From an uncultured delta proteobacterium (lineage in GTDB: Bacteria; Desulfobacterota; Binatia; UBA9968), in NCBI GenBank assembly GCA_963840855.1, contig CAWJBB010000084.1, positions 13,020-77,019 of the forward strand: a DNA stretch of 64,000 nt, in the 5' to 3' direction. This document shows positions 835 to 16,511 of the stretch, in pieces. How positions within the stretch are numbered: the first letter of the stretch is position 1; the number at the start of each line of letters is the position of its first letter. The notes beneath the pieces are model-generated. The model did not search any database and had not been told where the DNA came from. It saw only the letters and a program-made list of their open reading frames with translations. The position numbers were made by a program, and so were the translations under genes.

Positions 835-4074
<3,240 letters not shown>

Positions 4075-4078
4075 TGAA

Positions 4079-5245
4079 TCATTGGCCTCGAAATTTTGCC
4101 ATGAGGTCGATGAAGCGACTAAATAGATAATGGGCGTCGTGCGGTCCGGGCGATGATTCCGGATGATATTGCACGGAGAAGATCGGCAATTCTCTGTGCG
4201 CTAACCCCTCCACCGTATTGTCGTTCAAATTCAGATGAGTGATTTCCACCGCGCCCTTGAGGGAGTCCGCGTCCACGGCAAAACCGTGATTCTGAGCCGT
4301 GATTTCGACTTTTCTCGTGGTCACATCCATCACCGGCTGGTTGCCGCCGTGATGACCGAATTTCAGTTTGTAGGTCTTGCCGCCCAAGGCCAGACCCATG
4401 ATCTGGTGCCCGAGGCAGATACCGAAGATCGGTTTCTTGCCGATGAGCTTTTGCACGTTTTCCCTGGCGTAGGGAACCGCGTCGGGATCGCCGGGACCGT
4501 TGGAAAGGAAAATGCCGTCGGGATTCATGGCCAAGACATCTGCCGCTGAAGTGTCCGCCGGAACAACTCTCACTTGGCATCCCGACTCGGCGAGGTTGCG
4601 CAGAATGTTGTACTTGATGCCAAAGTCGTAGGCGACCACGGAAAAGCCGGGAGATTGAAAGCTGGCCACCTTTTTGCCCCGCCGGGGGTTCTTCGCAGCC
4701 TGCCGCTTCTTGTAGCCTTCGCCCAATTCCCAATCGCCTTCGTCCCAATCGTAGGGCGCTGCGCAGGTCACATTTTTCACTAAATCCCGCCCGACCAGTC
4801 CCGGCGAAGCCTTAGCCTTGGCGATGGTATCGGCCGGGTTGGCGTCCGCCGTGGTAATGATCCCCTCCTGAGAACCCTGATCGCGCAAGTGGCGCACCAG
4901 CGACCGGGTATCGATTCCCTGAATGCCCACGATGCCGTGCTGCTCCATGTATTCATGCAGCGGTTTTGCGGCGCGCCAGTTGCTCGGCCTCGCCGTGTAG
5001 TCCTTGACGATAAATCCCTTGGTGTAAGGTCTTCTCGACTCGACATCTTCGAGGTTTACGCCGACGTTGCCGATCTGTGGATAGGTCATGGCAACGAGCT
5101 GGCCCTCATAGGATGGGTCGGTGAGAATCTCCTGGTAGCCGGTCATGCTGGTGTTGAATACCACCTCACCCGCCGCTTCGCCTGCCGCTCCGAAGGAGAG
5201 CCCTTCGAAATAGCGTCCGTCCGCCAATGCCAAGATCGCTTTCAT
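4079..5245 (-). CDS. carA: Carbamoyl-phosphate synthase small subunit
   Basis: [30 protein letters not shown] and SVQYHPE glutamine-amidotransferase motifs. Confidence 0.99.
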
Positions 5246-5266: not shown

Positions 5267-7216
5267 TCATTTGGTCGGCGCCGCCGCGTTTTGCGGCCGC
5301 GGCCGCGTCGCACCGTCGCTTAGATTGATGATCGAATAGATCACCGCTTCATCTTTTTCACCCTGCTCCGTCGCTCGCAGTTTAACGCGCACCCGTTCCC
5401 GCTCCGAACTCGGAATGTGTTTGCCGACGAAATTGGGCTTCACCGGAACCTCCCTATGGCCCCGGTCGATCAGAACCGCCAGGCGCACCATTTTGGGACG
5501 GCCGGATCGGAAAATAATGCTCAGAGCGTCTTTGATCGTTCTGCCCGTATAAATGACATCGTCTACGAGCACGATCTCGCGGTCCCTAAGATTAAGCGGC
5601 CCGGCGTCGGTAGCGATGGGGGAAATCCGGCGAATTTCGTCATCGGCGCCGTAGATGTCAATCTCGCCGACCTCGTATTTTCGCTTGTTTTGCTTTTCCA
5701 GTTCCGCCGCGACGCGACGCGCCAGAACGGAACCTTGGGTGCGGATACCGAGAAGTAGCAGCCTGTCTGGGTCCTGGCATTCTTTGAGAATTTCCCGGCT
5801 CATCGACTGGACGGCCCCTTGGATCTCATCGTCGTTCATAATCATTCGCTGTCCGCGGCTCTTGTATGGCTCATAGCCGAGCTCTTCCGCCTCTTTGATC
5901 GAATCGAAGATCGCCAACTCATTTTTCTCGAGCCAGTCGCCAATCGTCGCCCGGAGCGAAATATCGTAGGCACAGTAGCGTTTGGACTTCACATGGCCCA
6001 CCAGTTGCACTTTGAACCGGTGATCGCAATAGACACAGCTGAGAATCAGCGCTCCGCCGGGCCCGCCGGAGAGCAGAGCGAATCGGCGCTGCGTCGAGCC
6101 GGCTTCGGTGACGGTCACACAATTGCTATTGACGCAGTGGGGGCCAAGGGACTCCGGGCTTTCATACAAAAAGACTTTATGTACCGCCGGCCCGGCTTTG
6201 TCCTCGGCGCGGTCAAACAAAAACTTTAACAGCGCCATGCGCACCGGCACGCCGTAGGCCGCCTGCTTAAAATAAATGCCGCGCTTGTCGCGGTCCAGTT
6301 CCGGCGATAGCTCATCGACCCGCGGCAGTGGATGCATGACCACGGTGTCCTTAAAGCGCTTTTCCCTGAGAAAGCGGTCTCCGATGGTCGGATAGCTGCC
6401 AGCGCCGGCGCCTTCTTTGATCCGCTCCTTCTGCTTGCGCGTCATATAAAAAGCGTCGTAGCGTAGGCCGGATGCCATTGCGCTGATGCGCGTCTGGATC
6501 GAGGCATCCAACTGCGTAAAGAGCGCCAACTGGTGCGGCTGTTGCGGCGTGAGATAGAGCGCGTCGGTTTCCGTAACCACGGCGCCTAAATCACCGGCGG
6601 CCAACCGGCTCAAGTTGTAGCCGTAATCCAGCTCCAAGCGTTCCAAGACATACTGCGGAAGTTCCATGCCGGCGGCAGCCAGGGTCACGACGTTGGCGCC
6701 AAAACGCGCCAGGGCGTAAACCAGAGAGTGAATCGTCCGGCCATTCTTGAGGTCGCCGCAAACTACCACGGTCAATCCTTTTAGCTCGCCCTTCTCCTTG
6801 CGCAAAGTATAAAGATCGCACAGTGTCTGCGTCGGATGCTCATGGCGGCCGTCGCCGGCGTTGATCACCGGTACATCAGCATGCTCGGCCATGGCGCGAA
6901 CCGCGCCGTCCCAGTGATGGCGCACGACCAGAACATCCGAATAGCTGGAAACCACCTTGGCCGTGTCGGCAAGGCTTTCTCCTTTGGCCGCCGACGACGC
7001 GCGCATGTCAGCGCAACTGATCACCTCGCCGCCCAGACGATGCATCGACGACTCGAAAGAAAGACGAGTGCGCGTGCTGGGCTCGTAAAAAAGCGTCGCC
7101 ATAATCCGGTCGCCTGCCGACTTTTCCTTCCGTAACTTATCCGCGTCATCCGCCAACGCGAAGATTTCTTCGATCTCCGCGTTGGTCAAATCGGCGATGG
7201 AAATCAGGTTGCGCAT
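5267..7216 (-). CDS. pyrB: Aspartate carbamoyltransferase fused to a PyrI-type Zn domain, an Ada-like module and a C-terminal PyrR/PRTase-like domain
   Basis: FYEPSTRTRLSFE, HPTQTLCDL, GDLKNGRTIHSL, MHPLPR (ATCase); CVNSNC...CVYC (PyrI Zn site); VLVDDVIYTGRT and LIDRGHREVP (PyrR/UPRTase), all in one uninterrupted 649-aa ORF. Confidence 0.92.
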   Translation of the reverse strand: MRNLISIADLTNAEIEEIFALADDADKLRKEKSAGDRIMATLFYEPSTRTRLSFESSMHRLGGEVISCADMRASSAAKGESLADTAKVVSSYSDVLVVRHHWDGAVRAMAEHADVPVINAGDGRHEHPTQTLCDLYTLRKEKGELKGLTVVVCGDLKNGRTIHSLVYALARFGANVVTLAAAGMELPQYVLERLELDYGYNLSRLAAGDLGAVVTETDALYLTPQQPHQLALFTQLDASIQTRISAMASGLRYDAFYMTRKQKERIKEGAGAGSYPTIGDRFLREKRFKDTVVMHPLPRVDELSPELDRDKRGIYFKQAAYGVPVRMALLKFLFDRAEDKAGPAVHKVFLYESPESLGPHCVNSNCVTVTEAGSTQRRFALLSGGPGGALILSCVYCDHRFKVQLVGHVKSKRYCAYDISLRATIGDWLEKNELAIFDSIKEAEELGYEPYKSRGQRMIMNDDEIQGAVQSMSREILKECQDPDRLLLLGIRTQGSVLARRVAAELEKQNKRKYEVGEIDIYGADDEIRRISPIATDAGPLNLRDREIVLVDDVIYTGRTIKDALSIIFRSGRPKMVRLAVLIDRGHREVPVKPNFVGKHIPSSERERVRVKLRATEQGEKDEAVIYSIINLSDGATRPRPQNAAAPTK

Positions 7217-7238: not shown

Positions 7239-7796
7239 TCACAGCGCGCCGCGGCCTTGCCAGCGGGTGATCGTGATCTGATCGATTCCGTCGGACTCTT
7301 CCAGCATCACGTTCACTCGGTTGCCTTCGCCCGCTTCCACATTCTTTCCAACGATATCGGCACGAATAGGCAATTCCCGCGATCCGCGGTCGACGAGTAC
7401 CGCGACCAAAATTCTTTTCGGCTGCCCGAATTGCGCCACCGCATCCATCGCCGCGCGAATCGTCCGGCCACGAAAAATCACGTCGTCGACTAACACCACG
7501 GTTTTATCGTCCACCGCCACCGGCACTTCAAACGCGCCCACCGTAGCCGATCCCGGTTCCTGCGCGCGGTCATCACGGTACGGCGTGACGTCAAGAACGC
7601 CGACCGGCGTTACGACTCCGGTGATTTCCTCGACCTTGCGCGCGATGCGGCGCGCCACATGCACTCCCCTCGAGCGAATCCCGATGAGAACCAAACCAGC
7701 CGCATCGTTGCTCTGTTCAATGACCTCATGGCCCATGCGATTGATGGCGCGCGCCAATTCGTCGGCTTCGAAAAGGACTTGCTTTTCTTGCATCAT
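7239..7796 (-). CDS. pyrR: Pyrimidine operon regulatory protein PyrR
   Basis: RAINRMGHE, LDVTPYRDD, VLVDDVIFRGRT, VLVDRGSRELPIRAD; first gene of the pyr-car operon. Confidence 0.93.
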   Translation of the reverse strand: MMQEKQVLFEADELARAINRMGHEVIEQSNDAAGLVLIGIRSRGVHVARRIARKVEEITGVVTPVGVLDVTPYRDDRAQEPGSATVGAFEVPVAVDDKTVVLVDDVIFRGRTIRAAMDAVAQFGQPKRILVAVLVDRGSRELPIRADIVGKNVEAGEGNRVNVMLEESDGIDQITITRWQGRGAL

Positions 7797-7799
7797 GGC

Positions 7800-7830
7800 A
7801 AAAAAAAACCCCTCGGTTCACCGAGGGGTC
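7800..7830 (-). terminator. Intrinsic terminator (attenuator) immediately upstream of pyrR
   Basis: Minus strand ACCCCTCGG-TGAA-CCGAGGGGT followed by a long U run, ending 3 nt before the pyrR ATG. Confidence 0.88.
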
Positions 7831-7867
7831 AAACGATAGTATGCGAAATGGTTCCTAAGCTATTCAT
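7829..7867 (-). CDS. Putative 12-aa pyr leader peptide (MNSLGTISHTIV)
   Basis: ATG AAT AGC TTA GGA ACC ATT TCG CAT ACT ATC GTT TGA, preceded by GGGAAAGG inside the 3' arm of the PyrR loop. The stop codon overlaps the 5' base of the terminator stem. Translation is inferred. Confidence 0.55.
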   Translation of the reverse strand: MNSLGTISHTIV

Positions 7868-7871
7868 GGCG

Positions 7872-7904
7872 CCTTTCCCAGCCTCGCGGGACCGGATTAA
7901 AAGG
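7872..7904 (-). promoter_or_regulatory. PyrR-binding RNA stem-loop
   Basis: Minus strand CCTTTTAATCCGGTCCCGCGAGGCTGGGAAAGG matches the known PyrR binding-loop pattern (UUUAA...RGUCC-nGnGAGGCU...AAAGG) upstream of pyrR. Confidence 0.88.
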
Positions 7905-8029
7905 AAGACACGGTTTATTTAGCTATCATGACGCAAGCCGTCGGCTGCGTCAGCCCACAGAAACAATGGTACTGTAATATGATTTCCACGGTATATTCAA
8001 GATAGCGGCGAAAGATTTCGCGGAAAATT

Positions 8030-8491
8030 CTATTCGCGGATCTGCACAATGATTTCGGTTTCCACCGGCGCGTCCTGACTGAGCGACGCCACGCCGACCG
8101 CGGCGCGGGTATGTTGCCCCTTTTCGCCCCAGACTGAAACGAGCAAGTCGGACTCGCCGTTGACGACTTTAGGCATGTCGGTAAATCCCGGAGCGACGTT
8201 CACGTAGCCCAGCACCTTGACAATGCGCTCTACTTTGTCGAGATCGCCAAGCGCCGCTTTCATGGTCGCGAGATGATTGAGCGCGCAATCGCGCGCCGCG
8301 TCATAGGCCTGTTCCAGGGTGACCGTGCCGCCGACCTTGCCGCGGTATTTGAGCACGCCATTGATGCGGCCGATATTGCCGCCGATAAACAACAGATTGC
8401 CGACCCGGACAAAGCCGATGTAATTCGCGGCGGGGGTCGGCGGATCGGGCAACTCGATCCCCATCGTGTTGAGCTTTTTCTCTATTTCCAT
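8030..8491 (-). CDS. RidA/YjgF/UK114 family protein (Rid1-like)
   Basis: PTPAANY, RIVKVLGYVN, PKVVNGESDLL, GQHTRAAVGVASL motifs. Confidence 0.88.
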   Translation of the reverse strand: MEIEKKLNTMGIELPDPPTPAANYIGFVRVGNLLFIGGNIGRINGVLKYRGKVGGTVTLEQAYDAARDCALNHLATMKAALGDLDKVERIVKVLGYVNVAPGFTDMPKVVNGESDLLVSVWGEKGQHTRAAVGVASLSQDAPVETEIIVQIRE

Positions 8492-8589
8492 TTCCCCTCC
8501 CGGAGAATTGTTTAGACTACCAGCGAACCATAAATGCGAGTAATTATCTAGCCGCCCAGCGCGCGATCTGCTTCATGAATTGGGCTCCA

Positions 8590-8630
8590 AACGTTTGAAA
8601 CGATTGGAACTACTGGAACGATTGGAACGA
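8590..8630. repeat. 9-mer tandem repeat (CGATTGGAA-like), same family as 712-823
   Basis: acgtttgaa acgattgga actactgga acgattgga acg. Confidence 0.7.
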
Positions 8631-8642
8631 CCCCTCGTTAAA

Positions 8643-8670
8643 GTAAACTTTTTATTCCCTGTGTCGTCTA
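8643..8670 (+). promoter_or_regulatory. Putative ECF-sigma promoter
   Basis: GTAAAC-N16-CGTCTA upstream of the Spy/CpxP-like gene; matches the AAC/CGT ECF consensus. Confidence 0.6.
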
Positions 8671-8707
8671 ATTGAACAAAACCAACCCATAAGGAGGGGG
8701 GGATTAT

Positions 8708-9211
8708 ATGAACAAAGTGAAGGCATGGTTCTTGGGCGGCGCAGTCTTAGCATCGGCGGCTATTGCGGTTCCGATGTTGTTGCACGCCGATGGCGACGGT
8801 CAGGGGCGATTTGGCCGGAGGCCGGGTGCGCACCAGCTGTTTGCCGGCGGCGCGCCGATTATCAGCGTCGCGCTCAAGCATCAAAGCGAACTGAAGCTGA
8901 CTGCGGATCAGGTAGCGAACCTGGAAAAGACCAGGACCCATTATCAGAGCCAGATCGAGCCGCTCCACCAGCAGCTCAGGACGGGGGAAGGCGAAATCGC
9001 CAAACTGATGCAGGAGACGCCGGCGAATCTCGTCCAGCTAAAGATAAAGATTCAGGAAACCGAAAAACTCCGCTCCGAGCTTCGCTATCTGAGAGTCGAG
9101 GCGCTTGAGAATGGCAAATCCATCCTGACCAACGACCAGCGCGAGCAGTTGAAAAACATGTTCGCTTCCCAGCGCAGTCGACGTCACAGAAATCACGGAC
9201 AGCCGTCATAG
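8708..9211 (+). CDS. Periplasmic Spy/CpxP (LTXXQ) family protein
   Basis: Signal peptide, ELKLTADQ and ILTNDQREQL LTXXQ motifs, strong RBS AAGGAGG. Confidence 0.85.
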   Translation: MNKVKAWFLGGAVLASAAIAVPMLLHADGDGQGRFGRRPGAHQLFAGGAPIISVALKHQSELKLTADQVANLEKTRTHYQSQIEPLHQQLRTGEGEIAKLMQETPANLVQLKIKIQETEKLRSELRYLRVEALENGKSILTNDQREQLKNMFASQRSRRHRNHGQPS

Positions 9212-9234
9212 CATCGCGCCATTAGACACAGCGC

Positions 9235-9275
9235 GAAAGGCCCGGCTCCTTCGAGCCCGGGCCTTTCTGTTATAT
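9235..9275 (+). terminator. Putative intrinsic terminator
   Basis: GAAAGGCCCGG...CCGGGCCTTTC hairpin followed by a T-rich tail after the Spy-like gene. Confidence 0.65.
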
Positions 9276-9410
9276 TGAATGATTGCCGGTCGATCCTCGC
9301 GAGCCCGCCTCCTGTTACTGAAACGAAAAATCTCAGCCCTTGCGCAACCGATCGCAAACGAATAGCTTGCTTTTTGCTCGCAAATCAAACCCAGGGGAGT
9401 TACTCCGATT

Positions 9411-10409
9411 ATGGCTCAAGCGGAATTGATCGTTGACGTACATCATCATTACATGCCGGCGGCACTCTTCGACCGGCTGGCGGCCCAGGCGGGCGGCAAA
9501 CGCATCGTTACCAAGGAAATCAGTCTGACGCTCCATCCTTCGCGCAAGGATTTGGCGGCGCATATCAGCACCATGGACGAGGCCGGCGTAACCGTCTCGA
9601 TTCTCACCGATCAGGTGCAAGTCATGGGAGCAGAGGTCGCCAAAGCGCTAAACGACGGCGTCGCCGAGGTCGAACATAAGCATCCCACGCGGTTTCGTAG
9701 CGCGATTCACTTGCCGATTCACGAGCCGGATGCGGCGAAGCGCGAGCTGGAACGGGGAATCAACGAGCTCGGACTGCGCGCCGTCGCGCTGCTCGCGTGC
9801 CATCTGGAAATACAGCTTGACAACCCGGTCATGTTTCCGCTCTATGAAATCATTCAGAAAAACAATCTGCCGATCATCATTCATCCGCAGTCGAAGCCCA
9901 CGGGTTCGGAAACCACGTACAATTTAGATCGCTGCGTTTTTCGTCCCCTTGAAACGACGCAGGCAATCGTGCGCGTAATGAATGCGGTTTTGCCCCGTTT
10001 TCCTGAGCTGCGTTTCATCATGCCGCATTTGGGCGGCGCGACTTCCTCCCTGAAGGGGCGCATGATGGCTTTCTTTGAGACCGAAGACGCCGATATCCCT
10101 CCCGACATGAAAGGTTATCTAAAAACTCAATCGGAACAAAAGAAATTCGGCTTGACGGAGCGGTTCGAGAAACTTTTCAAGCGGCTCTACTTCGACACCG
10201 CCGGCACGGGCGCTTGGCTCCCGGCGATGGCAGCGGCCTTGAACATCACAGCGCCGGACCGCATCATGTTCGGGAGTGACTATCCGTTGGAATGCAAAAC
10301 GGCGGCAAATCTCACTGAGTCCCTGGAGATGATCCGGCAGGCACCCTGTTCCGCCCAGGAGAAAACCGCCATGCTAGGAAAAACCGCGGGGGAGTTGTTC
10401 AGTTTGTAA
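9411..10409 (+). CDS. Amidohydrolase_2 family protein (ACMSD/decarboxylase-like)
   Basis: VDVHHHY, IIIHP, MPHLGG, LYFDTA, IMFGSDYP. Confidence 0.88.
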   Translation: MAQAELIVDVHHHYMPAALFDRLAAQAGGKRIVTKEISLTLHPSRKDLAAHISTMDEAGVTVSILTDQVQVMGAEVAKALNDGVAEVEHKHPTRFRSAIHLPIHEPDAAKRELERGINELGLRAVALLACHLEIQLDNPVMFPLYEIIQKNNLPIIIHPQSKPTGSETTYNLDRCVFRPLETTQAIVRVMNAVLPRFPELRFIMPHLGGATSSLKGRMMAFFETEDADIPPDMKGYLKTQSEQKKFGLTERFEKLFKRLYFDTAGTGAWLPAMAAALNITAPDRIMFGSDYPLECKTAANLTESLEMIRQAPCSAQEKTAMLGKTAGELFSL

Positions 10410-10571
10410 GAGCAAGTTATTGAATGGAGCAAAATCGAATCTATGTTCCAGCGCTTCGGGAATGCTGGAAGGCCGAACCATCCGAGGCACGGGTGGCGGG
10501 GTTGAGCGGCAAAGAGACCTATTGAAAGTCTCATAGTCCCTTGCCTCCGGAAATAATCCCAGGCAATCGGT

Positions 10572-11135
10572 TCACGAGAGAGCTTGGCAACGGCTTAACG
10601 CAGCTAAAGATATTTCCACGAGCTTGTTCGGCTCCTTGTCGAACAGGACGACCCCACGGGTCGGTTTCTTGCAAAAACCGATGATTTCCCGGATATGGTC
10701 CGCAATCCCGCCGCTGCCTTCAAGGACGCCGATGATTTTCCCTTCGTCGTACGCAATCGTAAATTCGTTCAATGTACCGGTGGCGCCGCCGAAGATAATC
10801 ACGACGTCGGCGGAGCGGACGTTGATGACATTGCGGCCCTTGTAGCCGAAGCCGGTATAAATAATTACATCGGCGCCGTCCTCGGGCAATCCTAATCGAC
10901 GATGCTCCGTTAAATCGGCCGCCGGCGAAACGCCCACCGCAAAGCCGCCCCCTGCGCGAAACGCTTTTGCCACCAAGTCCGGCAGCCCGGTTGTGGCGCC
11001 TGTGACCAGGACGCATTCTTCGCGTGCGAGTACCGATCCCAGTTCCTCGGCGAGTTTTTTGACCCGCTGTGCTTCCGATTGGGTCAGGGCATCGTTGGCG
11101 GAAGCGCCCATGACGCCGACAACCGGCTTGCGCAT
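10572..11135 (-). CDS. SLOG/LOG-family Rossmann-fold protein (TIGR00725-like)
   Basis: Start re-called at MRKPVVGVMG; TGATTGLP, YTGFGYKGRNVINVRSAD, GGATGTLNEF. Confidence 0.8.
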   Translation of the reverse strand: MRKPVVGVMGASANDALTQSEAQRVKKLAEELGSVLAREECVLVTGATTGLPDLVAKAFRAGGGFAVGVSPAADLTEHRRLGLPEDGADVIIYTGFGYKGRNVINVRSADVVIIFGGATGTLNEFTIAYDEGKIIGVLEGSGGIADHIREIIGFCKKPTRGVVLFDKEPNKLVEISLAALSRCQALS

Positions 11136-11140
11136 GAGGA

Positions 11141-12340
11141 TTAAATTACCTTTTCCGCCCGAAGTTTCGCGGTGTCCTCGGCGTCGTAGCCCAGTTCGCG
11201 CAAAATCGCTTCGCTGTCTTCGCCCAAACCGGGAATCCGATCGTAGCGGGCTTCGCTGGCCGACATTTTGAGCGCGTTGGCGATCACCGGAACTTCGCCG
11301 ACCGGCGATGCGGCCTCGCGAATAAGTTTTCGCGCCGCCACTTGCGGATGCGCCAGCACTTGAGCGATGCCGCGCACAATGCCGTAGGGCAATTCGGCAT
11401 TTTTGAGTCGTTCGAGCCAATGCATATGATCTTTTTCGAGAAATAGTTTTTCAATCGATTCTTCCAGCTCGCCGCGGTTTCTCCGCCGGCCTTCAACCGT
11501 CGCGAAGCGCGGGTCTTCGAGCAGCTCCGGCTTTTCAATCACTTTGCGACAAAACACTTCCCAGTCCGCGGCGCTTGCCACGGCGAGATTCACATACTGC
11601 CCGTCGCCCGCGAGATAGGGGCCGTAAGGCGTGACGTAGTGATGGCGCATGCCGACCCGCGCCGGTTCTTCGCCGGCATGCCAGAAGTGATGCGGAAAAT
11701 AGCCGAGCCACGAAACGATGGAGTCGAACATAGAGACGTCGATCAACTGCCCTGCACCGGTCTTTTCTCTCTGATAAAGCGCGAGCAGAATGCCGATGGC
11801 CGCGTACATTCCCGACGCGATATCGGCGATGGCGATGCCCGCCCGCGCGGGCTTGTCCGGATAACCGGTCGTAGCGATAATACCGCCCTCGCCTTGAATC
11901 AAGAGATCATACGCTTTCACGTCGCGATACGGTCCGTCCTGGCCGTAACCCGACAGCGAGCAATAGATCAGGCGCGGGTTGATCCCGCTAAGCGTTTCGT
12001 ACCCAATCCCCAATCGGCCGGCGACGCCTGGCGCATAATTTTCAAAAAAAATATCCGATCGCTTGGCTAGTTCCTGGATAATCTCCCGCCCCTTCGTCTG
12101 CTTGACATCTACGGTAAGACTGCGCTTGTTTCTATTGAGCCAAACGTAACCCGAAGACAGACCCTTGACGACGGAATCCCACGAGCGAATCACATCGCCC
12201 ACGCCCGGCCGCTCGACCTTGATCACTTCCGCGCCCATGTCCGCGAGCAAACATGTGGCAAACGGACCGGACAGCACCTGTTCAAAGGCGAGAATCTTGA
12301 CGCCGTCTAAAGCGCGACTTGGTTGTGAATTGGACGCCAC
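11141..12340 (-). CDS. Class III CoA-transferase (CaiB/BaiF family)
   Basis: LADMGAEVIKVERPG, LNRNKRSL, SLSGYGQDGPY, AYDLLIQ, IADIASG; GTG start after GAGG (upstream alternative at 12358). Confidence 0.92.
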   Translation of the reverse strand: MASNSQPSRALDGVKILAFEQVLSGPFATCLLADMGAEVIKVERPGVGDVIRSWDSVVKGLSSGYVWLNRNKRSLTVDVKQTKGREIIQELAKRSDIFFENYAPGVAGRLGIGYETLSGINPRLIYCSLSGYGQDGPYRDVKAYDLLIQGEGGIIATTGYPDKPARAGIAIADIASGMYAAIGILLALYQREKTGAGQLIDVSMFDSIVSWLGYFPHHFWHAGEEPARVGMRHHYVTPYGPYLAGDGQYVNLAVASAADWEVFCRKVIEKPELLEDPRFATVEGRRRNRGELEESIEKLFLEKDHMHWLERLKNAELPYGIVRGIAQVLAHPQVAARKLIREAASPVGEVPVIANALKMSASEARYDRIPGLGEDSEAILRELGYDAEDTAKLRAEKVI

Positions 12341-12359
12341 ATTTACCTCATGTTTCACG

Positions 12360-12425
12360 TTGAACCTTGAACTTTGAACCTTGAACAGCGCCGAGTCCGT
12401 TCAAAGTTCAAGGTTCAATGTTCAA
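12360..12425. repeat. Heptamer array (TTGAACY)x4 + 12-nt spacer + inverted (GTTCAAN)x4
   Basis: ttgaacc ttgaact ttgaacc ttgaac agcgccgagtcc gttcaaa gttcaag gttcaat gttcaa; near-perfect long inverted repeat between two co-oriented genes. Confidence 0.92.
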
Positions 12426-12432
12426 AGCATGT

Positions 12433-12939
12433 CTATTTACCTTCCTTAATCTCTGGAAACAGATCAGCCTTCGGCGCATGGGCTTTCTTCCAAACCATCA
12501 CACTGCGAGCGTAGTCTATGACGACTTTGCCGTCTTGCTGGATGCCACGGGTGCGAACTTTGACGATACCCCACTGCGGCTTGGATTTCGATTCGCGCTT
12601 GTCCAGGACTTCGGATTCCGAATAGAGCGTGTCCCCCGCGAAGAGCGGGTTGGGCAGCTTGATCTCATCCCAGCCGAGGGCGAAGCCGTTTTCGCTGACA
12701 TCGGCGACGCCCATGCCGGCGACGATAGCGAGGGTGAGCGCGCTGTTGATGAGACACTTGCCGAATTCCGTGCGCTTGCCGTACTCGTTGTTAAAATGAA
12801 TCTGGTTCGTGTTGTTAGTCAATAGTGTAAACCAGATATTATCCGCTTCCGTTACGGTCCGACCGAGGCGGCAACGGTATATATCCCCTACTTCAAAGTC
12901 CTCGAAAAAACGGCCTTCCCAGCCGGGCTTGACGGCCAT
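12433..12939 (-). CDS. MaoC-family (R)-hydratase, RipB/itaconyl-CoA hydratase-like
   Basis: GRFFEDFEVGD, GRTVTEADNIWFTLLT, IHFN, GDTLYSESEVLDKRESKS. Confidence 0.88.
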   Translation of the reverse strand: MAVKPGWEGRFFEDFEVGDIYRCRLGRTVTEADNIWFTLLTNNTNQIHFNNEYGKRTEFGKCLINSALTLAIVAGMGVADVSENGFALGWDEIKLPNPLFAGDTLYSESEVLDKRESKSKPQWGIVKVRTRGIQQDGKVVIDYARSVMVWKKAHAPKADLFPEIKEGK

Positions 12940-13005
12940 GACGTTCCTCCTCTATTGGCAATCCGCGGGTTGCGCTATAGTCTACGCCAATTATAGGAGG
13001 CGGTG

Positions 13006-14166
13006 ATGGATTTCAACCTAACCACCGAGCAGCAGCAGATTCGCGAAGAGATCAAAAGGGTCTGCAAAGAATTTGCAGACGCCTACTGGCGCGAAGTCGA
13101 CCGGAACAAAGCCTACCCGGAAGCCTTTGTAAAAAAACTATCAGAGCTGGGCTGGCTGGCGGCGTTGATTCCCGAGGAATATGGCGGCACGGGCCTCGGC
13201 ATCACCGAAGCGAGTATTATTCTCGAAGAGATCAACCATTCGGGCGGTGTCGCCACGGCCTGCCACGCCCAGATGTACACCATGGGCACGCTTTTGCGCC
13301 ATGGGAACGATGAGCAAAAAAAACGCTACCTGCCCAAGATCGCCACCGGCGAGTTGCGTCTGCAAGCCTTCGGCATAACCGAACCCGACGCCGGATCGGA
13401 ATCGACGCGCATCCAAACCACGGCCGCGCGCAAAGGCGATAAATACATCATCAACGGTCAGAAGATTTTCATTTCCCGGGTTTTGCAGTCCGATCTGATG
13501 CTCCTGCTCGCGCGCACGACGCCGTATGACGAGTTGCAGGATAAAACCCGCGGCCTTTCGGCGTTCATCGTCGACTTGAAGGAAAATAAAGGAAAACTTG
13601 AAGTTAAGCCGCTGGACCTTATGATCAACCACCACACCAACGCGCTGTTCTTCGACAACGTTGAAGTGCCGGTGGAAAATATCATCGGCGCGGAAGGCAT
13701 GGGCTTTCGTTACATCATCGACGGTTGGAACGCGGAGAGAATTCTCGTCGCCGCCGAGGCCGTCGGCGATGGCCGGTGGTTTATCGAACGGGCCGCCAAG
13801 TATGCCAGCGAGCGCAACGTCTTCGGCAAACCTATCGGCTCCAACCAGGGCGTTCAATTCCCCATCGCCAAGGCCTACGCCAATATCGAGGCCGCCGATC
13901 TGGTGCGCTACCAGGCAGCGACCAAATTCGACCGCCAAGAAAAATGTGGCGCCGAAGCGAATTTGGCGAAGTACCTCGCCTCAGAAGCGGCCTGGGAAGC
14001 CGCGAACGCTTGCCTTACCACCCACGGTGGTTACGGTTTCGCTGTGGAATATGATGTGGAGAGAAAATTCCGCGAGACACGCCTACTGACCGTTGCGCCC
14101 GTAAGCAACAACTTAGTTTTGGCTTATCTTGGGCAGCATGTATTGGGAATGCCGAAATCCTACTAA
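13006..14166 (+). CDS. Acyl-CoA dehydrogenase
   Basis: IPEEYGGTG, AFGITEPDAGS, INGQKIFIS, FGKPIGSNQGVQFP, HGGYGF. Confidence 0.93.
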   Translation: MDFNLTTEQQQIREEIKRVCKEFADAYWREVDRNKAYPEAFVKKLSELGWLAALIPEEYGGTGLGITEASIILEEINHSGGVATACHAQMYTMGTLLRHGNDEQKKRYLPKIATGELRLQAFGITEPDAGSESTRIQTTAARKGDKYIINGQKIFISRVLQSDLMLLLARTTPYDELQDKTRGLSAFIVDLKENKGKLEVKPLDLMINHHTNALFFDNVEVPVENIIGAEGMGFRYIIDGWNAERILVAAEAVGDGRWFIERAAKYASERNVFGKPIGSNQGVQFPIAKAYANIEAADLVRYQAATKFDRQEKCGAEANLAKYLASEAAWEAANACLTTHGGYGFAVEYDVERKFRETRLLTVAPVSNNLVLAYLGQHVLGMPKSY

Positions 14167-14269
14167 TCACAGTTTCGAGAGCCGTAAAGAGCCTGGATGC
14201 CAGAATCCGGAAAGGCTTACGCCTCAAGCGCCAATCGCGCGAACATTCCGTCTAGGGTCTTGATTTAAC

Positions 14270-14335
14270 TCGAGACTCGGGGACGCTGGACGCTGGACCC
14301 TCGACCCTAGATCCCGGTCGCTAAACCCGGGTCCC
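14270..14335. repeat. Degenerate heptamer tandem repeat (GGACGCT/GACCCTN)
   Basis: ggacgct ggacgct ggaccct cgaccct agatccc between convergent genes. Confidence 0.55.
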
Positions 14336-15514
14336 TTAGTTCTGCTTTAGCCTCCTCACGACCAACACCGCTAACAAAAATAGCGCCGTCGAACCCAGCG
14401 AGCCGACGACGAAGACGCTGGCGATTCCAGTGGCGTGAGCGATGAAGCCGCCGATGGCTGGTCCCAAAATATTGCCGAGATCGCCGGCGGCGTTGTAGAC
14501 ACCCGAGGCCAGCCCGCGCCGCACCCGGCTTTCGGGAACGTCCTCTACCAGGCCGACTGCGTTGGCCACGACCACGATGGCCCGCATAAATCCCGATGCC
14601 ACGTATACAACCAGAATTGGACCAAAAGCGGTAAAAAGCGGCACGAGCATCAGAATCAACGACTGGAGTGGAAGCCCGAAGTAAGACAAGCCGCGGTGGC
14701 CGATCTTGTTGACGACATGGCCGCTGATAGGGCGAGTAACGGCATTACCGCCAGCATAGGCGGCGCGAATCACGCCGATCTGGGTCAAGCTCATCCCCAC
14801 TGCTAGGCCGTACAAAGAGATAAAAACTCCACCCATCTGATGCAGCAGATTGAGAAACAAGGCGACGATGACTACCGTGCAAAGCTTGGGCTCCAGTAAA
14901 ACTTTAAGTGATTCTTTAGATGTGAGTATGGCTTTGTCTCGCTCCTTTGACTTGCCCTTCCCTGTTCCAACCCGCCCATGGAAAAACCACAGCAGAGCAA
15001 CCGCCACCAGCGAGAGCAGCGCTGCTAATTGAAATGTCGTGCCAAAGTCCCAATGATCGGCAATCAGCCCGCCAAAAAAATTTCCCGTCGAATAACCCAG
15101 CGCTAGGCTGCCGACATAATATCCCATGGCATGATTGCGGTTTTCATCCGGCGCCAGCGAGTCCACGTAAAAAGCCATGTAGAGAGTCGTCACCGCGCCG
15201 TAAGAAAAGCCGTTTAAGCTATGAACGAGCGCAAATGTCAAACCATCGGTCGCGAAGCTGTAGAGAAAATTGGTGCAGCCCATCGCCAACACCGCCAGCG
15301 ATACCAGGACGCGGGCGCGCGCTTGGTTATAGGCCATGCCCATAGGCAGCCGCGACATGAGCGCCAGCACTGGGCCGAGGGAAATGAGCGTGCCGATGGC
15401 AGCCACGGGAATACGCATGTGATCGAGATACGGCGGAATGATAGTCGAGGCGGAATTGCTCTGGATCGTAACGGCAACGATGGGCACTAGAAGTTTCAGC
15501 GTGCTTAATTTCAT
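14336..15514 (-). CDS. MFS transporter
   Basis: Start re-called at MKLSTLKLLVP; about 12 hydrophobic segments; GGLIADHW and GPAIGGFIA. Confidence 0.88.
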   Translation of the reverse strand: MKLSTLKLLVPIVAVTIQSNSASTIIPPYLDHMRIPVAAIGTLISLGPVLALMSRLPMGMAYNQARARVLVSLAVLAMGCTNFLYSFATDGLTFALVHSLNGFSYGAVTTLYMAFYVDSLAPDENRNHAMGYYVGSLALGYSTGNFFGGLIADHWDFGTTFQLAALLSLVAVALLWFFHGRVGTGKGKSKERDKAILTSKESLKVLLEPKLCTVVIVALFLNLLHQMGGVFISLYGLAVGMSLTQIGVIRAAYAGGNAVTRPISGHVVNKIGHRGLSYFGLPLQSLILMLVPLFTAFGPILVVYVASGFMRAIVVVANAVGLVEDVPESRVRRGLASGVYNAAGDLGNILGPAIGGFIAHATGIASVFVVGSLGSTALFLLAVLVVRRLKQN

Positions 15515-15626
15515 ATCTGTTGAGTTATTCTCCAAAATTCGCGACAGCGCAAATCCGCTCACAGCGCAAGCCCGGATAGACATTTCCTCGACCTTCAGGT
15601 AATGAGACTCGGGAGGAGAATATCGA

Positions 15627-16511
15627 ATGGAATTACTCCGCTCATGGATGTTCGTGCCGGGCCACCGCCAACGAATGATCGACAAAGCGCTGGGGCTCAA
15701 CGCCGACGCCATCATGCTAGACATCGAAGACGGCGTGGCGCCCAACGAGAAAGATCAGGCGCGGAAAAACATCGGCGAATCCCTTGGTCGCAAAAAAACG
15801 CCCGGCTCCTCTGCTCGCTACGTGCGCATCAACGCCATCGGCCACCCGCGGATGGACGCTGACCTGGATGCCGTTGTCCGGCCTGGGTTGGAAGGTTTGG
15901 TGTTACCAAAAGTCGACACCGTGGCCGAAGCGCGCAAAGTCGATGCGATCCTCACCGATCGTGAATCCAAACGGAGGATGCCCTCCGGCGGTATCAAACT
16001 CCTCATTGCCATCGAGAGCCCCAAGGGACTGCTCAATGCGCCAGCCATCGCAGCAAGTTCCTCCCGCGTCACCGGTTTGATGTTTGGCGCAGAGGATTTT
16101 GGCCGCGAGATCGGACTTCCGGCGGTACGCGAAGGCGAAGCCCGCGATCTGATTTTCGCGCGCTCAGCAATGGTCATCGCCGCGGCGTCAGCTCATGTTC
16201 AAGCCATCGACGGCGTCTGGGTCGATTTAAACGACGGCCCCGGACTTCTGGGTTTTGCCAAGCAGTCGCGCCGGCTCGGCTTCTCCGGTATGTCGTGTAT
16301 TCATCCATCGCAAGTCGATGCCATCAATACGACCTTCAGCCCGACGGCGGAAGAAATCGATTACTGCCAAAAAGTTTTGCAAGCCTTTGAAGAAGCCAAT
16401 GCTCGGGGCGACGGCTCGATAGCCTTCGGCGGCCAGCTGATCGACCGGCCCATCGTCGAGCGCGCCCGGCGCACTATCGACATGGCCAAGTCCCTCGGAC
16501 TTTTAAAATAA
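15627..16511 (+). CDS. CitE/HpcH-family CoA-ester lyase (citramalyl-CoA/malyl-CoA lyase-like)
   Basis: LRSWMFVPG, MLDIEDGV, YVRIN, LPKV, IESPKG, FGAEDF, CIHPSQ, LIDRP. Confidence 0.9.
   Translation: MELLRSWMFVPGHRQRMIDKALGLNADAIMLDIEDGVAPNEKDQARKNIGESLGRKKTPGSSARYVRINAIGHPRMDADLDAVVRPGLEGLVLPKVDTVAEARKVDAILTDRESKRRMPSGGIKLLIAIESPKGLLNAPAIAASSSRVTGLMFGAEDFGREIGLPAVREGEARDLIFARSAMVIAAASAHVQAIDGVWVDLNDGPGLLGFAKQSRRLGFSGMSCIHPSQVDAINTTFSPTAEEIDYCQKVLQAFEEANARGDGSIAFGGQLIDRPIVERARRTIDMAKSLGLLK

Follow-up and report, generated by a model that had tools for sequence, protein, structure and literature searches.

The 64,000-nucleotide (nt) stretch of DNA analyzed here, referred to as the window in the following, belongs to the 7.1 Mb genome (G000; 94% complete) of an uncultured soil bacterium. 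At positions 5267..7216 of the (-) strand, it carries a single open reading frame (ORF) of 649 amino acids (aa) plus stop, with no internal stops, in which an aspartate carbamoyltransferase (ATCase) catalytic chain is followed by a tether, a four-cysteine (Cys4) zinc domain of the type found in the regulatory chain PyrI, a cysteine-poor module with some likeness to the DNA repair protein Ada, and a phosphoribosyltransferase (PRTase) domain of the PyrR type. A first-pass annotation of the window had proposed this uninterrupted frame and its four-part architecture, and both hold; the translation also bears out the coordinates it had given for the Cys4 site, for a VGHVKSKRYC...GYEP segment and for the PRTase domain. 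The fusion probably builds a so far undescribed control of pyrimidine synthesis into the enzyme itself. Among allosteric enzymes, ATCase is the textbook case, and to our knowledge, every regulated bacterial form described so far depends on PyrI, on an inactive dihydroorotase that serves as its partner or on sites of the catalytic chain. As the first-pass annotation had supposed, the architecture appears to be new: a literature search conducted largely outside subscription journals found no description of an ATCase-zinc-Ada-PyrR fusion. In the following, labels beginning with G, L and P refer to genomes, related loci and database proteins, respectively, and f1 to f3 to groups within the window's order.

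The ATG start codon of the fusion gene agrees with the start in most homologues, and a GGAG can be read in the sequence 13 nt 5' of it. Among the Pfam families that the first-pass annotation had put forward for a domain scan, OTCace_N (PF02729; aa 2-139, E 3.3e-49), OTCace (PF00185; split into two stretches, 1.3e-18) and Pribosyltran (aa 468-593, E 4.4e-18) match the protein, and PyrI_C (PF02748; aa 360-402) scores 21.6 bits, slightly below its cut-off of 23.4; Ada_Zn_binding (PF02805) gives no match at E <= 1 in a search whose HMMER filters drop most weak matches. The NCBIfam model for ATCase, TIGR00670, reaches 287.9 bits against a cut-off of 236.95, and NF002032 reaches 270.7 against 263. 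Expressed as the mean majority-residue fraction over 68 homologues, the conservation of each added domain is about equal to that of the enzyme part, with values of 0.80-0.90; the tether (6167..6211, (-) strand; aa 336-350, ~15 residues) and the C-terminal tail (5267..5320, (-) strand, including the stop; aa 633-649) are variable, at 0.37 and 0.31. An AlphaFold2 model of the full-length protein has a predicted local distance difference test (pLDDT) score of 65.5, with values below 50 in the tail, at the end of the PRTase domain and in an insert of the catalytic chain described below; because this score is low, we did not use the model for inter-domain geometry. Database copies of the protein carry one of two names, 'aspartate carbamoyltransferase catalytic subunit' or 'PyrR', and the four-part architecture would correct this naming.

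The gene is part of an operon that reads, on the (-) strand, from a PyrR-binding leader with terminator through a free-standing pyrR and the fusion gene to carA and carB. The leader (7800..7908), a PyrR binding site (anti-antiterminator loop) with attenuator, matches the Rfam family RF00515 with 54.2 bits (gathering score 54; E 1.8e-5) over model positions 1-115 in full, and is the sole RF00515 match in the whole genome. Inside this match lies the terminator hairpin of the attenuator (7807..7830), with a 10-bp stem containing 7 G-C pairs and a 4-nt loop, followed by TTTTTTT. The free-standing pyrR (7239..7796) encodes 185 aa, scores 202.7 bits with the PyrR model NF003549 (cut-off 138) and has PyrR 1non as its best PDB match (E 2e-49). 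Its product retains residues R20 and H23, which are discussed below, and judged by its sequence is likely the RNA-binding attenuator. Both this gene and the leader had been missed by the first-pass annotation. The gap from pyrR to the fusion gene is 22 nt, and carA (4079..5245; 388 aa), assigned by reading the sequence and from the Pfam domains of its equivalent in locus L102, follows 21 nt past the fusion gene; carB (835..4074; 1079 aa) was assigned by reading the sequence.

This arrangement recurs in related genomes. Of 20 other fusion loci, 18 have a free pyrR immediately upstream of the fusion gene, and two are cut off by contig ends. Of the 17 related fusion loci examined for RF00515, 13 have a match just 5' of this pyrR. 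Five of these matches reach at least the gathering score (18 loci searched), and eight more lie at 45.8-53.6 bits (11 loci searched at E <= 0.01); L006, L010 and L102 gave no match, and L009 was searched at the gathering threshold only. With a free pyrR and a leader of its own in the operon, the usual job of PyrR is therefore already served by another gene. The statement of the first-pass annotation that no pyrC lies between pyrB and carA is correct for the window, and pyrC is found on another contig of the genome; in two relatives, a pyrC-like gene does follow the ATCase gene, namely in G244, with the order pyrR, fusion, pyrC-like gene, carA, and in G046, where the distance is 58 nt.

Distribution and integrity of the fusion gene

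A search with aa 336-649 returned 702 proteins at E <= 0.001, and 104 of the 120 relatives listed are 635-672 aa long and contain both the ATCase and the PRTase Pfam domains. The named records come from metagenome-assembled genomes of Candidatus Binatia, Deltaproteobacteria, Syntrophobacteraceae and Syntrophobacter sp. SbD2, the closest being a Candidatus Binatia bacterium with 96% identity over the C-terminal half. Within the window's order, 28 of 41 genomes have the gene: the window's genome and 22 of 24 others in f1, all 5 in f2 and none of the 11 in f3. These counts take in, besides the window's genome, the unpublished genomes G009 (partial) and G015. Across the phylum, the part comprising zinc domain and linker is present in 8 of 401 sampled genomes, and a search with this part among 1.84 billion cluster representatives gave 44 matches at E <= 0.001, nearly all of them fusions or pieces thereof. 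One of the 44, P0157, is an unrelated repeat protein of 1617 aa.

One might suspect that separate genes were joined by an assembly or gene-calling error, as the existence of shorter database forms could indicate. Most of these, however, are encoded on contigs of 1-5 kb, and just 7 of the 120 short forms listed lie on contigs >10 kb. Four forms from long contigs (P0286, P0330, P0343 and P0347) begin inside the zinc domain or where it ends, not at the tether, and we therefore read them as frameshifted calls; the 313-aa frame of G214 ends where its contig ends. The first-pass annotation had considered that homologues in related genomes might turn out to be split; instead, the gene forms one unbroken frame in 23 of the 41 genomes, the single-contig genome G025 among them. 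Together with the many full-length relatives, these frames make an artefact so improbable that we can practically dismiss it. Among the database proteins P0166-P0285 are, in addition, many singleton ORFs of 337-905 aa, mostly with one member each, in which an N-terminal PyrR precedes the ATCase, in one case with a dihydroorotase part. Such ORFs might be cited in favor of a joining error for the fusion as well; they themselves probably result from neighboring pyrR, pyrB and pyrC genes having been called as one.

A natural variant of the architecture ends before the PRTase domain. In G046, the gene at L104:2773-4179 (-) encodes a protein of 468 aa with ATCase, zinc domain and Ada-like module, and has no adjacent pyrR; it is this gene that is followed by the pyrC-like gene mentioned above. 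The database protein P0165, of 476 aa, stops in the same way without a PRTase domain, as does the fragment P0161.

Catalytic chain, zinc domain and Ada-like module

The catalytic chain (6212..7216, (-) strand; aa 1-335) is that of a complete ATCase. The motifs by which ATCases bind carbamoyl phosphate and aspartate, S-T-R-T-R, H-P-T-Q, T-R-x-Q-x-E-R and H-P-L-P-R, are all present, and their residues S47 T48 R49 T50 R51 (STRTR), H127 P128 Q130 (HPTQ), T259 R260 Q262 E264 R265 (TRKQKER) and H295 P296 L297 P298 R299 (HPLPR) are invariant in the 68 homologues. The closest solved chains, 1ml4 (251 bits), 2rgw, 6yw9, 1pg5 and E. coli 1q95 (207 bits), span 207-251 bits, with 2at2 far below at 128 bits. 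We take the former to represent the branch of PyrI-associated and plant ATCases and the latter to be the Bacillus enzyme; by bit scores against solved chains, the catalytic part thus groups with the PyrI-associated ATCases. Within the genome, OTCace_N matches the fusion alone, and an ornithine carbamoyltransferase (OTCase) was not detected in this 94%-complete assembly, although most relatives have a second, OTCase-like match. Because of the incomplete assembly, we count this and other absences from the genome as 'not found'.

Unlike class B ATCases, the fusion has an insert of ~39 additional aa in its aspartate domain (6464..6631, (-) strand; aa 196-251). It interrupts the hidden Markov model match, such that aa 2-195 and 252-332 pair with residues 6-203 and 221-303 of 1ml4, and it contains a second copy of the DA.Y.T..Q strand, DALYLTPQQ (218-226), just before DAFYMTRKQ (254-262), which belongs to the TRKQKER motif. 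This family-specific insert, which presumably lies close to what corresponds to the 240s loop in the E. coli enzyme, is found in every member, including the forms without PRTase domain.

The zinc domain (6008..6166, (-) strand; aa 351-403) contains the cysteines C361, C366, C394 and C397, whose codons span nt 6136-6026 and which are invariant in all 68 close and 28 wider homologues. While the window's own protein stays just below the PyrI_C cut-off, 9 of 18 scanned relatives exceed it, with divergent members scoring 24.4-39.1 bits (39.1 in L104, 25.3 in L102), and the C-x-N-S-N-C ... C-x-Y-C pattern aligns with residues 109-147 of E. coli PyrI. For fold comparisons, we used a model of aa 336-460 with a pLDDT of 73.6. 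In Foldseek, its top 23 matches are PyrI chains without exception (43 columns, 30% identity, rmsd ~2 A, E 0.01-0.24), and in VIA, it matches PyrI residues 98-146 with Z-scores of 6.1 and 5.4. On the basis of the invariant cysteines, the Pfam scores of the relatives and the agreement in motif and modeled fold, we assign this part as a PyrI_C domain.

The other half of PyrI appears to be missing, in agreement with the first-pass annotation. Its allosteric domain (PF01948) has no match in the fusion protein at E <= 1, none in the 94%-complete genome and none in any of 41 relatives; in a control search, the same model found matches in 7 of 14 named genomes. This rules out that the fusion contains PyrI proper. 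Likewise, it is not a PyrB-PyrI fusion of the Thermotoga type: these share with it the union of catalytic and regulatory parts on one chain, but carry the entire PyrI including the allosteric domain, and the corresponding model NF009916 gives 85.5 bits against a cut-off of 800.

Between zinc domain and PRTase domain lies a module (5852..6007, (-) strand; aa 404-455) that includes the VGHVKSKRYC...GYEP segment (aa 406-450, nt 6001-5867). With a majority fraction of 0.84, it is as highly conserved as the enzyme domains. The first-pass annotation had called it Ada-like, a label that we retain as a weak one. In the same partial model, aa 404-453 superimpose on residues 27-71 of the N-terminal zinc domain of Ada (1u8b; VIA Z 4.4, rmsd 2.2, 45 aligned) and on a second structure of this domain (1eyf; Z 4.0); these rows come just below PyrI, and the next unrelated row has Z 3.4. 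The Foldseek match to Ada 1zgw is weak (E 1.1), and an ESM Atlas search with the Ada-like part yielded no usable match. The module's F-x-S-x-x-x-A-E-x-x-G-Y-x-P motif presumably corresponds to a similar one in Ada. Unlike the N-terminal domain of Ada, however, it has no Pfam match, no sign of a repair function and no Cys4 site for zinc binding and methyl acceptance, C415 being the sole cysteine in aa 404-455 and replaced in divergent members. We therefore treat it as a putative zinc-free adaptor.

The fused PRTase domain and the free PyrR proteins

The C-terminal PRTase domain (5321..5851, (-) strand; aa 456-632), which starts near nt 5848, scores 155.9 bits with NF003549 over aa 456-620 and matches PyrR structures in the PDB with E-values of 1.6e-34 to 8.5e-31. 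It shares with the PyrR attenuators and uracil phosphoribosyltransferases (UPRTases) of Bacillus (1a3c, 1non) the fold, the family model, the loop that binds phosphoribosyl pyrophosphate (PRPP) and the DRGHRE motif, and differs from them in being joined to an enzyme, in the loss of R20, H23, K/R28 and YRDD, and in forming a clade of its own. For a comparison at the level of residues, we aligned 24 fused domains with 18 free PyrRs adjacent to fusion genes, 68 free PyrRs of other phyla and the third PyrR paralogue of the window's genome.

The residues of the nucleotide site are largely intact. D552, D553, V554, G558 and T560 of the PRPP/nucleotide loop (V-D-D-V-x-x-T-G-R-T) are invariant in the 68 close and 28 wider homologues, and among the fused domains of the alignment, the two aspartates, the glycine and the threonine of the loop as well as K151 are found in 24 of 24, the loop arginine (R111) in 19 (with tryptophan in 4), and the histidine of DRGHRE in 23; the DRGHRE motif is changed in P0159, a deep member of the family. 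A different picture emerges at positions 20, 23 and 28, which we take to be R19, H22 and R27 of B. subtilis PyrR, on its basic RNA-binding face; RNA-binding residues of PyrR were reportedly identified by Savacool and Switzer in 2002. Arginine at position 20 remains in 3 of the 24 fused domains, compared with 18/18 adjacent and 67/68 other free PyrRs (85/86 in total), and histidine at position 23 in none, compared with 16/18 and 50/68 (66/86). At position 28, 20 of the 24 have D or E, where free PyrRs have K or R (15/18 adjacent and 62/68 other; 77/86). The YRDD loop is likewise replaced, with its arginine in 3/24 fused domains versus 18/18 adjacent and 67/68 other free PyrRs, its tyrosine in 0/24 among the listed residues and its second aspartate in 3/24; in the 68 PyrRs of other phyla, 66-68 keep the loop residues. 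The PyrR-like domain that the first-pass annotation called complete is thus, by its sequence, whole as a fold, but without the helix and YRDD-loop residues that are conserved in free PyrRs.

These losses bear on the idea that the fused domain has kept the RNA binding of PyrR, so that the enzyme itself would act as the attenuator on the leader. PyrR binds RNA as a UMP-bound dimer through a basic concave surface, and GMP or GTP antagonizes this binding, according to passages of a review (PMC7430163). The operon leader does contain a PyrR binding site, and the fused domain retains R141, K152 and a K/R at 146 (B. subtilis numbering). The helix positions, however, are lost with reversal of charge, nearly every locus has a neighboring gene for a free PyrR with the helix residues, and the genome has just one binding site, all of which makes this explanation very unlikely.

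The fused domain and the adjacent free PyrR of the window share 35% identity. In a quick tree of 111 rows, from which L030 was left out, the fused domains form one group, with a Shimodaira-Hasegawa-like approximate likelihood ratio test (SH-aLRT) value of 92, and the adjacent free PyrRs a separate one (SH-aLRT 91). Identity and grouping rule out a recent duplication of the neighboring pyrR and identify the fused domain as an old specialized paralogue. The third paralogue joins the fused group via long branches only, and its place in the tree is therefore unsure.

The adjacent free PyrRs have decayed at other positions than the fused domains: they retain R20 in 18/18, H23 in 16/18 and the YRDD residues in 16-18 of 18, but have lost T109 (R in 13/18), R125 (kept in 3/18), H139 (1/18) and the P154-T-S motif, which is replaced. 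The fused domain, in turn, retains T109, R125, H139 and a P-T/S-S motif. The losses in one paralogue thus mirror those in the other, at positions that at least 85% of the 68 other PyrRs conserve, and the trees of the two clades are broadly parallel. Both features would be expected if the fused domain paired with the free PyrR, all the more since PyrR works as a dimer, as the same passages state (PMC7430163), and since pyrR directly precedes the fusion gene in nearly every locus. In such a heteromeric trigger enzyme, the ATCase would hold or release the attenuator according to the metabolite state and so couple its own state to the transcription of its operon. Complementary loss, however, also fits subfunctionalization without contact, and co-occurrence is weak evidence, since pyrR and pyrB are commonly adjacent in ordinary operons; we regard the pairing as doubtful. 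The same low expectation applies to the further idea that nucleotide or PRPP state would govern this contact and that the contact would also tune catalysis, making the two proteins the halves of one regulatory device.

Another question is whether the domain might be an active UPRTase. The protein would then be a bifunctional enzyme that combines the first committed step of de novo synthesis with salvage, regulation being secondary. PyrR proteins can have UPRTase activity, as likewise stated in the consulted passages of the review (PMC7430163), and the PyrR of M. tuberculosis has a weak one (PMC3570474). The fused domain keeps the PRPP loop D-D-x-x-x-G-R-T as well as the residues T109, R125, H139 and P-T/S-S, which the adjacent free PyrR has lost, and no canonical match to upp, the usual UPRTase gene, was found above the cut-off in the 94%-complete genome, with a full-length upp in just 1 of 41 relatives. 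By contrast, YRDD is replaced in the fused domains, and the UPRTase model PF14681 gives 12.4 bits on the fused protein, under its cut-off of 27. In type I PRTases, a flexible loop closes over the active site, and we take the altered loop to be this one. Moreover, the products of two other PyrR-type genes of the genome have retained YRDD and could provide UPRTase activity. One is the free pyrR of the operon; the other lies on contig C20:18385-18903 (L012:1372-1989, -), between genes for a hydantoinase/carbamoylase-family amidase and an ABC substrate-binding protein, scores 195.6 bits with NF003549 and retains both YRDD and the PRPP loop, which makes it a candidate UPRTase as judged from these motifs. 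Many relatives likewise have a third PyrR-like match on another contig. The loss of YRDD thus weakens the case for a bifunctional enzyme, and the apparent lack of upp keeps it alive; on balance, we consider it unlikely.

Proposed mode of action and surroundings of the operon

The explanation that we favor, with a confidence of about one half, is that the fusion is the cell's only detected ATCase and carries within itself a regulatory chain for sensing nucleotides or PRPP. By analogy with PyrB-PyrI, the zinc domain would dock on the catalytic trimer, and the PRTase domains would pair as in PyrR, thereby linking two trimers. UMP/UTP, GMP/GTP or PRPP occupying the PRTase site would then shift ATCase activity, while the free upstream PyrR would perform transcription attenuation via the leader, such that one kind of sensor fold would control both the transcription and the enzyme activity of a single operon. 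Control by UMP, GMP or PRPP through the PRTase domain fits the residue pattern, in which the nucleotide site is kept and the putative RNA-binding residues are lost, and PyrR itself responds to UMP/UTP versus GMP/GTP, again according to passages of the review (PMC7430163).

Such a device would follow the same logic as the class B ATCases (PyrB6-PyrI6) of E. coli and archaea, with which the fusion shares the catalytic branch and, by motif and modeled fold, the Cys4 zinc domain: a docking domain is combined with what we propose to be a nucleotide sensor. Class B enzymes, however, consist of two chains, whereas the fusion is one polypeptide without the PyrI allosteric domain. Moreover, the sensor of PyrI precedes the zinc domain, whereas the PRTase fold follows it, with the Ada-like module in between. 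The first-pass annotation had proposed that the PRTase domain takes the place of the allosteric one. This agrees with the absence of the latter and with the residue pattern, but not with the order of the domains: since it lies after the zinc domain, the PRTase domain would be analogous to it in function but would not replace it in position.

Several points weigh against this reading. The function, the ligand and the oligomeric state of the fusion are inferred from its sequence at every step, and the poor full-length model offers no usable inter-domain geometry; with the sensor C-terminal to the zinc domain, the geometry of E. coli ATCase cannot simply have been copied. The variants without PRTase domain (L104, P0165) imply that the zinc-Ada part has a role of its own. 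The tryptophan in the PRPP loop of some fused domains and the changed DRGHRE motif of one deep member suggest that nucleotide binding may not be universal, and with upp not found in the genome and rare in its relatives, a catalytic UPRTase role retains some probability. Finally, the RNA-binding role of the PyrR helix residues is carried over from B. subtilis PyrR, the measured quantity being their contrast in conservation.

The truncated variants and the altered loops would also suit a structural scaffold, in which the zinc-Ada-PRTase extension would only assemble or stabilize a higher oligomer and the PRTase pocket would be a relic without control by a ligand. Unregulated ATCases are indeed known (class C). 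In a relic pocket, however, one would not expect PRPP-loop and DRGHRE residues that are invariant, or nearly so, throughout the close and wider homologues, and we thus find a mere scaffold rather improbable.

If the fusion does sense nucleotides or PRPP as proposed, then the PyrI zinc domain would have been retained as a docking adaptor, while the sensor was exchanged for a PRTase fold from an RNA-binding attenuator. Allosteric sensors would accordingly be swappable as modules on a fixed docking domain, the PyrR fold would be convertible from the control of RNA to the control of an enzyme, and purine/pyrimidine or PRPP sensing would be wired into ATCase by a second route.

Just downstream of carB, at 748-823, lie 9-nt tandem repeats, CCGTTCAAA (2.4 copies) and AACGTTTGG (4.4 copies), which underlie a sub-threshold match to signal recognition particle (SRP) RNA. 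This match and the other Rfam rows below the gathering score (Pistol and two Burkholderia small RNAs) are taken as chance. Upstream of the operon, at 8030-16511, are unrelated genes, which were assigned by reading their translations; these resemble RidA, a small periplasmic protein, an amidohydrolase, a family III CoA-transferase, a MaoC-like hydratase, an acyl-CoA dehydrogenase, a major facilitator superfamily (MFS) transporter and a citrate-lyase-beta-like protein.

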